Source: Eledone cirrhosa
Lineage: Eukaryota
Direction: 5' to 3'
Assembly: GCA_964016885.1 (NCBI GenBank)
Contig: OZ024741.1
Span: forward strand, 232,748,001-232,812,000
Length of the DNA: 64,000 nucleotides
A model generated the notes under the pieces. The model was not told the DNA's origin and searched no databases. It saw only the letters and a program-made list of their open reading frames with translations. How positions within the stretch are numbered: the stretch's first letter is position 1; the number at the start of each line of letters is the position of its first letter. Of the stretch, positions 8,876 to 40,878 are shown piece after piece. The position numbers were made by a program, and so were the translations under genes.

Positions 8876-9063
8876 CTTTAAAGTACTATAGCAAAGAAGG
8901 TGCGGTAAGATACCATGTGGACCATAACGTACCAGAGTTCTCGATATTTTGGATAAAAGAGTGGGTACAGAAAAGAAGTCATGTTCTCACTCTTTTTCTA
9001 TATTAATATATATATATATATACATTTATATAAATACACATATATATATACATATATATACAC

Positions 9064-9102
<39 letters not shown>

Positions 9103-9197
9103 TATGTATATATACATTTATATATACATATATATGCATATGTATATATACATATATATATATACATATATATATATGTATATATATATACATACAC

Positions 9198-9254
<57 letters not shown>

Positions 9255-9261
9255 CATACAC

Positions 9262-9304
<43 letters not shown>

Positions 9305-9334
9305 AATGTATGTATATATATATATATTATATAT

Positions 9335-11165
9335 TTGATTTTAAAAGAACTAAGGAAAAATTATAAAAAAGCCCCGGCTGAAGATCTTACAGACATCAAT
9401 AATGAGGCATATAAATTAATTGCAAAGTTAGGAATTGAAGGAAGAACCAAGTCTCTTATACCTAGACAGTCGCGGATCAATGTTAAGGAAGACCTGCCAG
9501 TTAGTCTGATTGCTCCATCCAAATCGGATATTGGAGTAATCAGTAAAAATATTATTGATAGAATTCTACCTATTTTGAAATTGAGGTCTAAATTGAGCTT
9601 GTGGAAGGATATAAATGAAGTGATTGAATGGTATAAAAATATAGATGATAAGAAAAACCATAAATTCATCCAGATGGACATAACAAACTATTACTCTTCC
9701 ATTACGCCTAACCTACTAAATAAGGCTTTATCATACGCTTACAAACATACGGATCTAACTACGGATGAAATTGATATCATATTAACTGCTAGAAGAACTC
9801 TAATTAACTTCAACAATGAGTATTGGACCCGCTCAGATAGAAATAGAAACTTCGACATTACCATGGGACTCAGCGCAAATCACGGATCTTCTGCGGATTT
9901 ACATCTTAGATATGATAAATAGAAAAATTACCGGTGGTTTATATAGGGACGATATTTTATTTACGGTTGTTAAACACAACAATATAGAACTAAATAGGGT
10001 AAAGTAAAATATAATTGAGTTCTTTAAAAATTATGACCTTAAAAATTACGACCTTAAACTAGAGGTAGAAAGTGGTACCAAAATAGTTAATTTCCTTGAT
10101 GTTACCCTTAACTTAAACTCTGGTTTGTATTGCCCTTTCCATAAGCCCAATGAAAACTTAAATTACGTTAGTTATTACTCTAATCACCCTAAATCTGTGA
10201 AAAACGCAATTGTAAATAGTATACAAAAGCGCATAACTAGAATATCTGCCAATAAATCAATATTTGATGAAAAAGCAGGATATTACAATGATGCGTTAAG
10301 AAAGACAGGTTACAAAAATAATATAGAATATATAGACAATAATAATCCTAGTCTTAATCCTGATAAAAATAATGGAATATATAAACCAAATTCTAAAAAT
10401 TCTAATAATTGTAATTCAAATACCTGTACTATGAATAAATCGGGGAAAAGAACCAGAACTAAATCAGTTATATGATCCCCCACCCCTGCTTCTGTAGCAG
10501 TAAGAACACCAATAGCTAATCTATTTTTTAAAGCTTTAGATAGTTCCTTCCCTAGTCAACATAAATACCACTCCATATTTAATAGACACACAATTAAACT
10601 GCCTTATTCTACAACTATGAATATGGCCCAAAACATCGCTAAACTAAATAGTATAATTCTAAACCAAAATTAACATAATGCTATTAATAATAGTGTTAAT
10701 ATAAATAATAATAAATCGAAATGTAATTGTAGAAATAAACCAGATTGCCCTCTGCAAAATAATTGTCTGTATAGAAATCTGGTGTATAAATGCACCGTAA
10801 AAACAAATAACAACACATACAACTACATAGGAGCAACTTCTTCGACATTTAAATCGAGATTTGCAAATCACAAATTCTAATTTTCGAATTATAATAGGAA
10901 GTCTTCGACTTCTTTATCACTACTTATATGGTCATTAAAAGAAAAAATGTTTAAATACTCGATCTTTTGGACGAAGCTTTGTAATAGTAAAATATATACG
11001 AACTCATCTATATCAACTAACTGCAACCTCTGCACAAAAGAGACCCTATTAATAATTACTAATTATGAAAACTTAATTAACAAAAAAAGGGGATTATTCT
11101 CAAACTGCCTTCATAAAGCTTTGTCTACATTCCAAGTCTCGCAAAAAGTCAGGAAAAAACACTAA
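9335..11165 (+). mobile_element. Penelope-like retroelement ORF (RT + C-terminal GIY-YIG), Naiad-like, 5'-truncated and frameshifted
   Basis: [39 protein letters not shown]; the endonuclease has CNCRNKPDCPL (CxCx5C), YIGATSSTFKSRFANH and CNLCTKE; begins at a (TA)n tract. Confidence 0.88.
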
Positions 11166-14146: not shown

Positions 14147-14720
14147 ATGGTATTAGGATTGGTGCTCTGAAATAGTGATGTATACAATGAATGTATCTAT
14201 AGTATATTTGGCAATATACCGTATGCTTAATTAAAAACATGTTGTAGACCATACGCTATCAGTTTTAATGTAGTGAGTATGTCGCTTACTTCTTTTCTTC
14301 AGCGAAAGAAGGGAGAGAAGCTAACAAACTGTTTGTTTCACGCTGTTGGCGATCATCAAAGCAACGTACTCCCCGCTTTCGCCGAAGATTATAGAAGCTG
14401 GGTTCTTATAGAATTCACGTTAAAACTGATAGCGTATGGTCTTCAAAATGTTTTTAATTAAGCATTCGGTATATTGTCAAATATACTATACATACATTCA
14501 TTGTATACATCGCTATTTCAGAGCCCCAATCCTAATACCTAATTTTTGCTGGACCGGTAATCGCTCTGTATAATCAGCTCCTGATTATTACTGGATCGAA
14601 TCTGACTCTGGATTCAAAAGTTCCTCTGATACGTCTAGTGATTTCGAAGCAAATTCTCTAGGACCATAGACTGCTCAACCTGCATACCGCCTATTGGGCG
14701 CATCCGAGCAACCTTACTGC
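14147..14720. repeat. Repeat with about 125-bp inverted arms (14148-14270 / 14418-14540) and a minus-strand HHR variant at 14320-14362
   Basis: The arms are reverse complements; minus strand GCT-TTGATGA-TCGC-CAACA-GCGT-GAAA-CAAAC-A-GTTTG-TT-AGC. Confidence 0.7.
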
Positions 14721-14914: not shown

Positions 14915-14959
<45 letters not shown>

Positions 14960-15214
14960 CATATATATTTATTTATATATATATAAATATATATATATAT
15001 ATGTATATATGTATATATGTATGTATATATATATATATATATAAGTATGTATACGTACATACATATATGTACACAGATGTACAGTAGTATGTATATATAT
15101 ATACATACATGCACACATATATATATATGTACGTATGGATTCACCAAACATTTATTATAATGCTCGGTGTGTTTATAAACAAACATCCCGTATTAAGCCG
15201 CGGTGTCTAGCAAC

Positions 15215-15309
<95 letters not shown>

Positions 15310-15339
15310 GTGTGTGTGTGCATGTATATAAATATATGC

Positions 15340-15508
15340 CGTAAGGTTGTTATGATACGTCCATAGGCGGTATGCCGGTTGAGCACTCTATGCTCCTAGA
15401 GAATTTGCTTCGCAATCACTAGACGTACCTGACGAACTTGCGATTCCAGGGTCAGGTTCGATCCAGTTATAATCAGGAGCTGATTATACAGAGCGATTGC
15501 CGGTCCAG

Positions 15509-15512
<4 letters not shown>
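15340..15512 (+). repeat. Fragment inverse to 14540-14720; continues at 18856
   Basis: ...CTAGAGAATTTGCTTCGCAATCACTAGACGTA...GATTATACAGAGCGATTGCCGGTCCAGCAAA is the reverse complement of 14543-14700. Confidence 0.75.
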
Positions 15513-15550
<38 letters not shown>

Positions 15551-15555
<5 letters not shown>

Positions 15556-16438
15556 TGAAACAAAATGAAAACGAAATTTCATTTCTCACTCTTAGTATGG
15601 CACTTACTTAAATGTAAGTATGCATGTATACGTACATACATATATGTATACAGACGTACAGTAGCATGCACATATATATATATATATATACATATATACA
15701 TACATATGCATACAGGTACACATACATATATGCACGTATCAGTTTAGCGGCGCTAACGTCGCTTTGTTCGTTTGTAAACAAACTGAACAGCCTGAATTTA
15801 TGCCATACGGTGTTAAGGCAACCACGTCACCTTTTTGTTCAACACTGACACAGGAACGATGTACTAGTTTCAAGCTTGTTAGCTATCATCAGCACCGTTT
15901 ACCCATCTGCCAGATAGTTGAACGTTCGAAAGTATATACTTTCCTTATGAAAATTAACGGCTGAGCAGCCTAATTTGCATATTGAGTGAGTTAAATCGGT
16001 CAGGCATACCGAAAACGATAAATTGAAACAAAATGAAAACGAAATTTCATTTCTCACTCTTAGTATGGCACTTACTTAAATGTAAGTATGCATGTATACG
16101 TACATACATATATGTATACAGACGTACAGTAGCATGCACATATATATATATATATATACATATATACATACATATGCATACAGGTACACATACATATATG
16201 CACGTATCAGTTTAGCGGCGCTAACGTCGCTTTGTTCGTTTGTAAACAAACTGAACAGCCTGAATTTATGCCATACGGTGTTAAGGCAACCACGTCACCT
16301 TTTTGTTCAACACTGACACAGGAACGATGTACTAGTTTCAAGCTTGTTAGCTATCATCAGCACCGTTTACCCATCTGCCAGATAGTTGAACGTTCGAAAG
16401 TATATACTTTCCTTATGAAAATTAACGGCTGAGCAGCC
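15551..16438 (-). repeat. 468-bp HHR tandem repeat, left arm (about 1.9 units; HHRs at 15855-15899 and 16323-16367)
   Basis: Exact period of 468 (e.g. identical ORFs at 15565 and 16033); reverse complement of the right arm. Confidence 0.95.
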
Positions 16439-16517
16439 GTTAATTAGGCTGCTCAGCCGTTAATTTTCATAAGGAAAGTATATACTTTCGAACGTTCAAC
16501 TATCTGGCAGATGGGTA

Positions 16518-16562
16518 AACGGTGCTGATGATAGCTAACAAGCTTGAAACTAGTACATCGTT
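16518..16562 (+). ncRNA. Type I hammerhead ribozyme of the 468-bp unit (also 16986-17030, 17454-17498, 17922-17966, 18390-18434)
   Basis: AACGGTG-CTGATGA-T-AGCT-AACA-AGCT-T-GAAA-CTAG-TA-CATCGTT; 7-bp stem I, intact core, palindromic ACTAGT stem III; predicted cleavage after GUA at 16555. Confidence 0.88.
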
Positions 16563-16904
16563 CCTGTGTCAGTGTTGAACAAAAAGGTGACGTGGTTGCC
16601 TTAACACCGTATGGCATAAATTCAGGCTGTTCAGTTTGTTTACAAACGAACAAAGCGACGTTAGCGCCGCTAAACTGATACGTGCATATATGTATGTGTA
16701 CCTGTATGCATATGTATGTATATATGTATATATATATATATATATGTGCATGCTACTGTACGTCTGTATACATATATGTATGTACGTATACATGCATACT
16801 TACATTTAAGTAAGTGCCATACTAAGAGTGAGAAATGAAATTTCGTTTTCATTTTGTTTCAATTTATCGTTTTCGGTATGCCTGACCGATTTAACTCACT
16901 CAAT

Positions 16905-16912
16905 ATGCAAAT
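16905..16912 (+). promoter_or_regulatory. Octamer motif ATGCAAAT in each 468-bp unit (snRNA-type distal element candidate)
   Basis: Perfect octamer; a TGACGT at 17056 and a PSE-like CACCGTATGGCATAAATT at 17073-17090 lie downstream; function is inferred. Confidence 0.5.
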
Positions 16913-18672
16913 TAGGCTGCTCAGCCGTTAATTTTCATAAGGAAAGTATATACTTTCGAACGTTCAACTATCTGGCAGATGGGTAAACGGTGCTGATGAT
17001 AGCTAACAAGCTTGAAACTAGTACATCGTTCCTGTGTCAGTGTTGAACAAAAAGGTGACGTGGTTGCCTTAACACCGTATGGCATAAATTCAGGCTGTTC
17101 AGTTTGTTTACAAACGAACAAAGCGACGTTAGCGCCGCTAAACTGATACGTGCATATATGTATGTGTACCTGTATGCATATGTATGTATATATGTATATA
17201 TATATATATATATGTGCATGCTACTGTACGTCTGTATACATATATGTATGTACGTATACATGCATACTTACATTTAAGTAAGTGCCATACTAAGAGTGAG
17301 AAATGAAATTTCGTTTTCATTTTGTTTCAATTTATCGTTTTCGGTATGCCTGACCGATTTAACTCACTCAATATGCAAATTAGGCTGCTCAGCCGTTAAT
17401 TTTCATAAGGAAAGTATATACTTTCGAACGTTCAACTATCTGGCAGATGGGTAAACGGTGCTGATGATAGCTAACAAGCTTGAAACTAGTACATCGTTCC
17501 TGTGTCAGTGTTGAACAAAAAGGTGACGTGGTTGCCTTAACACCGTATGGCATAAATTCAGGCTGTTCAGTTTGTTTACAAACGAACAAAGCGACGTTAG
17601 CGCCGCTAAACTGATACGTGCATATATGTATGTGTACCTGTATGCATATGTATGTATATATGTATATATATATATATATATGTGCATGCTACTGTACGTC
17701 TGTATACATATATGTATGTACGTATACATGCATACTTACATTTAAGTAAGTGCCATACTAAGAGTGAGAAATGAAATTTCGTTTTCATTTTGTTTCAATT
17801 TATCGTTTTCGGTATGCCTGACCGATTTAACTCACTCAATATGCAAATTAGGCTGCTCAGCCGTTAATTTTCATAAGGAAAGTATATACTTTCGAACGTT
17901 CAACTATCTGGCAGATGGGTAAACGGTGCTGATGATAGCTAACAAGCTTGAAACTAGTACATCGTTCCTGTGTCAGTGTTGAACAAAAAGGTGACGTGGT
18001 TGCCTTAACACCGTATGGCATAAATTCAGGCTGTTCAGTTTGTTTACAAACGAACAAAGCGACGTTAGCGCCGCTAAACTGATACGTGCATATATGTATG
18101 TGTACCTGTATGCATATGTATGTATATATGTATATATATATATATATATGTGCATGCTACTGTACGTCTGTATACATATATGTATGTACGTATACATGCA
18201 TACTTACATTTAAGTAAGTGCCATACTAAGAGTGAGAAATGAAATTTCGTTTTCATTTTGTTTCAATTTATCGTTTTCGGTATGCCTGACCGATTTAACT
18301 CACTCAATATGCAAATTAGGCTGCTCAGCCGTTAATTTTCATAAGGAAAGTATATACTTTCGAACGTTCAACTATCTGGCAGATGGGTAAACGGTGCTGA
18401 TGATAGCTAACAAGCTTGAAACTAGTACATCGTTCCTGTGTCAGTGTTGAACAAAAAGGTGACGTGGTTGCCTTAACACCGTATGGCATAAATTCAGGCT
18501 GTTCAGTTTGTTTACAAACGAAAAAAGCGACGTTAGCGCCGCTAAACTGATACGTGCATATATGTATGTGTACCTGTATGCATATGTATGTATATATGTA
18601 TATATATATATATATATGTGCATGCTACTGTACGTCTGTATACATATATGTATGTACGTATACATGCATACT

Positions 18673-18745
<73 letters not shown>

Positions 18746-18747
18746 GT

Positions 18748-19220
<473 letters not shown>

Positions 19221-37429: not shown

Positions 37430-40813
<3,384 letters not shown>

Positions 40814-40878
40814 GTTTGAATCATGGGGTTGTTTAGCTTTCACCGCATCAATAACACATCATGCATGGATAAGACAGC

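Follow-up and report, generated by a model that had tools for sequence, protein, structure and literature searches.

An inverted two-arm insertion of a dispersed hammerhead repeat family in Eledone cirrhosa and its probable mobilisation by a Penelope-like element

The hammerhead repeats at positions 15550-18677 of the window, by which the whole analysed stretch of 64,000 nucleotides from Eledone cirrhosa is meant, are best read as one young insertion of a dispersed non-coding repeat family that was laid down in two inverted arms. With high confidence, the family is a non-autonomous non-LTR retrozyme mobilised by a Penelope-like element (PLE), which is probably of the Neptune type. Regarding the RNA that served as template, we lean towards a 468-nt molecule that would have cut itself and been circularised, from which the arrays, as passengers of that element, would have been copied, a reading drawn from genomic sequence whose main rival is an uncleaved multimeric transcript. 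At stake are the route by which animal retrozymes enter genomes and the role of hammerheads in PLEs; since the genome supplies young insertions by the hundred, nearly identical and with defined starts, together with a 468-nt substrate and Neptune-like proteins, circle and multimer are directly comparable. In addition, the family seeds many perfect inverted repeats, and hence potential double-stranded RNA, in a cephalopod genome.

The repeat has a period of 468 bp and a GC content of about 36%, and it occurs in 1.9 + 4.8 = 6.7 units, among which a single base (18523) constitutes the sole difference. A preliminary description had reported about 6.7 near-identical non-coding units of this period, flanked by (TA)n on both sides and carrying extra hairpins; period, units and flanks are present in the sequence, and both hairpins are seen in the predicted fold. 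The tandem array described there does consist of 468-bp units, but not of a single head-to-tail series: 1.9 minus-strand units meet 4.8 plus-strand units in a head-to-head join near 16440, with two hammerheads directed leftward and five rightward (Table 1). The arms form a perfect inverted repeat of 889 bp (15550-16438 versus 16447-17335) with an 8-nt spacer. With its two arms inverted, the locus cannot yield a single read-through transcript that would cut itself every 468 nt along the whole length, as had been proposed. We infer that the junction arose when the template was switched at a short microhomology. The array contains no plausible protein-coding ORF, and an ORF combining reverse transcriptase (RT) and GIY-YIG domains, as in autonomous PLEs, is absent from the array. 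The 59-nt stretch between the two 3' ends is termed the tail by analogy with the PLE tail as described in PMC11167929.

Table 1. Features of the insertion and its flanks in window coordinates; unit positions are numbered from the predicted cleavage site.
Feature	Position	Strand	Remark
(TA)n target, left flank	15512..15549	.	
Left arm, 1.9 units, sense leftward	15550..16438	-	Ends outward in the long 3' end (with tail) at unit position 312
Tail of 59 nt separating the two fixed 3' ends	15550..15608	-	Left end only; short predicted hairpin inside
Type I hammerhead	15855..15899	-	Motif
Type I hammerhead	16323..16367	-	Motif
Inversion junction, head-to-head	16439..16446	.	At a natural hairpin of the unit
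Right arm, 4.8 units	16442..18677	+	Ends outward in the short 3' end at unit position about 253, running into (TA)n
Type I hammerhead	16518..16562	+	Predicted cut after 16555
TA/TG-rich internal tract of each unit, one shown	16678..16808	+	Predicted long hairpin; length varies among copies
Stem I extension, one unit shown	16962..17048	+	Prediction; pairs sequence on both sides of the cut site
Type I hammerhead	16986..17030	+	Predicted cut after 17023
Type I hammerhead	17454..17498	+	Predicted cut after 17491
Type I hammerhead	17922..17966	+	Predicted cut after 17959
Type I hammerhead	18390..18434	+	Predicted cut after 18427
(TA)n target, right flank	18678..18870	.	

The surroundings of the insertion hold further repeats. 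Another repeat forms an inverted pair, 88% alike, at 14545-14717 and 15339-15512 beside TA runs, with a partial copy at 19091-19132, and this pair encloses an older fragment of the 468-bp family at about 14947-15213. Broken ORFs lie within the window at 8957-10475 (+) and 38693-40820 (-), which by their motifs resemble two other Penelope-like retrotransposons.

By motif, a hammerhead core is found in every unit (7 of 7). Stem I comprises seven pairs (AACGGUG/CAUCGUU, one of them G-U), the core boxes read CUGAUGA and GAAA, the cleavage triplet is GUA, and stem III is a two-pair palindrome within ACUAGU. Stem II, with four pairs, is closed by U10.1-U11.1 instead of the canonical G-C, so that the seven intact type I hammerheads initially described stand with respect to cores, stem I, boxes, GUA and ACUAGU, but not with respect to a canonical stem II. 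A U10.1-U11.1 start is known from natural hammerheads according to PMC3088659 and is also seen in two other hammerhead-like motifs of the same genome. A search of the hammerhead repeat against Rfam gave no family at gathering score, and a hammerhead model is absent among the 150 listed of 239 weak matches; the miRNA-like matches were rejected as TA-tract noise. At least three other families of hammerhead-like motifs occur at or near PLE loci (L084, L088, L094 and L097; L086, L090 and L095; L061 and L092).

Conservation of the ribozyme was followed by aligning the window with 23 older copies out of 29, leaving aside two truncated copies, three with hammerhead deletions and one that was misaligned. 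The counts also exclude a per-site table in which overlapping loci could enter more than once and part of the loci had been chosen by the hammerhead itself. One pair of stem I covaries, reading A-U in nine, U-G in nine and G-U in two of 23 distinct copies. Among older copies that were selected through a motif lying beyond the hammerhead, changes recurred at N7, loop II, H17, stem I and wobble positions, and the extended stem I pairing is retained through wobble changes (92.8% of cells paired; 0/500 shuffles), with few independent events. Compared with its flanks, the hammerhead showed no significant depletion of recurrent changes (p 0.82). Selection on the ribozyme is the best reading of these patterns, the covariation amounting to one compensatory pair in few events. 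A G-G mismatch at the core-adjacent pair of stem I is carried by the older copies L151, L162, L164-L167, L173, L174 and L178, which possibly constitute a sub-lineage that spread with a weakened ribozyme, within a set that was selected for change at this position.

The TA-free part of the unit folds better than shuffled sequences (z -4.9 for the sense and -3.0 for the antisense strand). In the predicted monomer fold, the three inner pairs of stem I reach pairing values of 0.18-0.28 and stem III reaches 0. Such a weakly predicted core is consistent with cutting as a dimer or with the help of a protein, as in minimal PLE hammerheads, which have a short palindromic stem III and are predicted in PMC4209133 to act as dimers; on the other hand, eight of nine predicted dimers of Xenopus retrozymes failed to cut (bioRxiv 10.64898/2026.07.22.740005). 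The extended stem I, if formed as modelled, would keep the two ends of a monomer together.

In the 3.0-Gb genome the 39-nt hammerhead has 10,198 exact matches, while the reversed control has none, and hence the repeat is not due to chance. The genome encodes molluscan hemocyanins, and one hemocyanin unit scores highest against PDB 1JS8, from octopus (855 bits), followed by 4YD9, from squid (738), which makes an octopod host likely. A motif of older subfamilies adds 4,489 further matches, with copies down to about 78% identity. Genome-wide patterns for the youngest subfamily found the exact tail-to-TA end 866 times and the internal junction 4,268 times, which puts the young insertions at at least 866, while a narrower pattern for the short end gave 471 matches. 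The dispersed copies in (TA)n that the preliminary description expected are therefore borne out by the hammerhead matches and the young insertions alike. Satellite-like arrays in which higher-order repeats occur, 9 to over 20 kb long, are built from this unit as well (L233-L234, L240, L232). The long older arrays that were examined, with 17, 39 and 20 units, contain shared variants with periods of eight and six units, so that tandem growth must also have proceeded at the DNA level.

The snRNA-type promoter of newt satellite 2 consists of an octamer plus a PSE and resembles the host snRNA promoter. The unit has ATGCAAAT, but no octamer occurs in three U2 upstream regions, whose similarity to the unit does not exceed that of shuffles; a promoter of this type is not supported. 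Comparison of the TA-free part with four of 24 sequencing runs yielded one weak contig for X4, 18 contigs for X5 and 69 for X8 (kind not on record), while X24 contributed no reads. RNA runs are absent among the listed carriers of the sequence, which carries no weight regarding expression, and contigs are blind to circles. Neither expression nor horizontal spread, which 20 runs filed under many organisms had suggested, is claimed on these results.

The termini of the insertions carry the argument for PLE-type mobilisation. Among 68 arms from 40 loci, 66 have their outer end either at the tail site, position 312 (35 arms), or at the short site, about position 253 (31), and two end elsewhere. These two fixed end points lie 59 nt apart, neither of them at the ribozyme site; 62 of the 66 fixed ends lead into flanks rich in TA. 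Of 23 inverted loci, 22 combine a tail end with a short end. A further set of 60 loci was chosen solely by the tail end, and here the resolved inverted arms stop at the short site in 37 of 39 cases (35 exactly, two within a base), the other two ending elsewhere and none showing a second tail, while 17 loci lack an inverted arm and four are longer than the stretch fetched. Moreover, 100 listed tail ends include 30 tail/short pairs, every one of which is oriented outward.

The inner ends, on the contrary, are scattered: across three sets, 0/68, 1/36 and 0/58 lie within 7 nt of the ribozyme site, that is 1/162, where about five would be expected if they were uniform. Inner ends in or just before the tail, within the last 69 nt of the re-phased unit, number 19 of 68 against about ten expected, an excess that perhaps marks a place of protein binding. 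The non-integer multimers noticed at the outset are present, but what shapes their ends is a pair of fixed start sites together with 5' truncation, not the ribozyme site. Likewise, the multimers for which rolling reverse transcription had been proposed exist, but because long arrays display higher-order repeats at the DNA level, multimers alone do not prove it.

A fixed 3' end, a one-sided tail, 5' truncation, an adjacent inverted copy, partial tandems and a (TA)n target together make up the features of PLE insertion, and this pattern supports PLE-type mobilisation more strongly than the evidence from which it was originally proposed. According to PMC11167929, a PLE protein extends both strands in vitro and starts at two internal sites that bound the tail, while partial tandems, an inverted 5'-truncated copy, a one-sided tail and microsatellite targets are described as the PLE layout in bioRxiv 10.1101/2021.04.23.441226. 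The genome is rich in PLEs, with 10,596 GIY-YIG candidates, of which 150 were scored. It harbours a Neptune-like family with RT, CxxC finger, GIY-YIG and a U-U-closed hammerhead of its own, the insertions of which terminate in (TA)n in the same two ways, short and long, with L094 carrying one kind per arm. No sequence common to the unit and this family was detectable, nor was any homology of the unit to the pLTR of an autonomous PLE in 50 GIY-YIG loci, a small sample of the 10,596 candidates. Three hammerhead pattern searches, with loosened patterns among them, and ten kb-spaced loci revealed no partner element.

The preferred course of events would begin with transcription of an array, the hammerheads of which would cut, probably as dimers or with the help of proteins, whereupon a host ligase would close the monomer. 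A PLE protein would then cut both strands of a (TA)n tract and prime reverse transcription at two internal sites, each copy would pass the ligation point and go round a varying number of times, and the two copies would join at their 5' ends via microhomology; some arrays would later expand at the DNA level. A more specific version, which is no more than tentative, assigns one PLE protein dimer to each insertion, with two reverse transcriptases rolling round one 468-nt circle from two starts, whereby changes at the RNA level, such as trimming at the ligation point and possibly A-to-I edits, would be written into every unit of both arms. If true, this version would provide direct genomic evidence for circular RNA as a retrotransposition template in animals.

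What speaks for one template per insertion is the distribution of variants. In three sets, both arms taken together, 32 substitutions are fixed in both arms and none in one arm only, next to 147 singletons and three shared polymorphisms, and many arrays carry private fixed changes; the best reading of these sequences is that each insertion represents one haplotype copied from one template. Genome-wide, the ribozyme junction shows 18 deletions within the 12 nt before the site and three insertions at the site, as opposed to 10,198 intact copies. Since copying starts in the middle of a unit and crosses the ribozyme site without a scar, the RNA was either a circle or an uncleaved multimer.

That the PLE mobilised a linear multimer which had been transcribed from a pre-existing array and left uncleaved, with the hammerhead cutting rarely or serving another step and length being regained by DNA duplication, appears possible but rather unlikely. 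In its favour and against the circle, hammerhead cleavage was unnecessary in vitro, unprocessed RNA was the dominant substrate and no RNA ends lay at the site, as described in PMC11167929; long arrays of 17 to 39 and more units could have served as sources, and the ribozyme-dead array L254 has normal ends. Besides, both arms of L050/L101 contain the same ordered run of unlike units, and in L102, L353 and L383 variants occupy a subset of the units, neither of which is predicted by a monomer circle. A multimeric template would, on the other hand, require many separate homogeneous sources, with private changes fixed across whole arrays and both arms, whereas the long arrays under study differ from the young insertions in being heterogeneous and older. 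Within-array variants are nearly all singletons, with 71 versus 7 and 89 versus 4 in a subset of units.

Two deletions bear on the circular template. In L322 an 8-nt deletion is fixed in both arms, and its pattern matches nowhere else in the assembly. In L254 a 7-nt deletion ending at the cut site occurs in five of five hammerheads, which are the only five matches genome-wide, and at the same locus (L254:888-3211, G000:C1 about 184.445-184.448 Mb) the inner end of an arm lies 3 nt after the cut site. As a single case, the latter deletion fits a circle that was trimmed and then ligated, while the parents of both deletions could be lost or reside on the other haplotype. Compared with two control intervals, deletions at the cut site were not enriched.

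Traces of editing were sought in the fixed changes. Outside the TA tract, fixed A>G and T>C changes stand at 7:3 and 2:0, which is not significant, and A-to-I editing is therefore not established. Array-fixed interruptions of the internal TA tract favour G over C in the sense strand (12 versus 2 arrays of 48, and 3 versus 0 of 37), while flanking TA tracts are symmetric (52 versus 50); non-fixed changes of the internal tract lean toward G too. This excess of G could stem from A-to-I editing or from selection for G-U pairs, with TG slippage and shared lineage as confounding factors.

It is improbable that the template was a cleaved linear monomer on which the reverse transcriptase jumped repeatedly from the 5' to the 3' end. 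Homogeneous multimers would be expected here as well, the cut site is directly adjoined by a few deletions (L254, L283, L325), and one inner end lies 3 nt after it; yet there is no accumulation of inner ends at this site (1/162), and the junction is almost devoid of added or lost bases. Ordinary satellite DNA spreading at the DNA level with an incidental hammerhead, to which the higher-order repeats of long arrays would be suited, is very improbable: at least 866 dispersed insertions stop in (TA)n at exactly the same 3' end, which, together with the outward-facing pairs of ends and the truncated 5' ends, marks retrotransposition, and the fixed two-end pattern contradicts a satellite origin. 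Finally, an assembly or read fold-back artefact, as a perfect 889-bp palindrome with an 8-nt spacer might suggest, can be dismissed with near certainty, given that dozens of loci repeat this layout with junctions that vary, arms of unequal length and ends that differ, among young as well as older copies.

Compared with known systems, the 468-bp family fits the DNA-level definition of metazoan non-LTR retrozymes (Cervera and de la Pena 2020, PMC7229834), which are described there as non-coding tandem units with a GC content under 50% and one type I hammerhead per unit, present in thousands of copies with PLEs alongside; examples given are mussel units of 350-400 nt and those of axolotl. The present unit of 468 bp compares with 150-450 bp for these retrozymes, for which expression and circles were shown according to the same source, whereas the Eledone family is described here from its DNA. 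The fixed tail and short ends and the inverted arms are what the family adds, the main text of PMC7229834 being free of the words 'inverted', 'octopus' and 'cephalopod'. That such repeats depend on PLEs has been concluded in bioRxiv 10.64898/2026.07.22.740005 as well, in agreement with our results. That conclusion is based on co-occurrence and pLTR homology, mainly in vertebrates and in no mollusc, with 'tail' occurring 0 times, unlike the present one, which is based on an insertion signature in a family for which the 50 GIY-YIG loci yielded no homologous pLTR. Hence, the metazoan retrozyme class (as described in PMC7229834) and a PLE dependence argued from homology (bioRxiv 10.64898/2026.07.22.740005) are already published, while the Eledone cirrhosa family and the evidence from insertion ends at population scale are new, a status that repeat libraries or supplements may change: searches of open-access literature showed neither a cephalopod retrozyme nor a tail or inversion analysis of retrozymes, and Repbase, Dfam or supplements may hold the family.

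Circles have been proposed as templates of retrozymes and PLEs in the texts of PMC4209133 and PMC7229834, the former suggesting circle-templated copying of more than one unit. With EN+ PLEs, namely Neptune (Craig et al. 2021, bioRxiv 10.1101/2021.04.23.441226) and Poseidon PAc (Frangieh et al. 2024, PMC11167929), as described in these reports, the family has in common partial tandems, 5' truncation, an inverted 5'-truncated copy, a tail at one end, microsatellite or AT-rich targets, a hammerhead near the end and two internal starts; it differs from them in lacking an ORF, in its many short units per insertion and in a tail of 59 nt versus 30-40. Similarly, its hammerhead resembles the minimal PLE hammerheads described in PMC4209133 (Cervera and de la Pena 2014) in the short palindromic stem III, but is distinguished from them by a longer stem I of seven pairs plus extension, a short stem II and U10.1-U11.1 in place of the conserved G-C.
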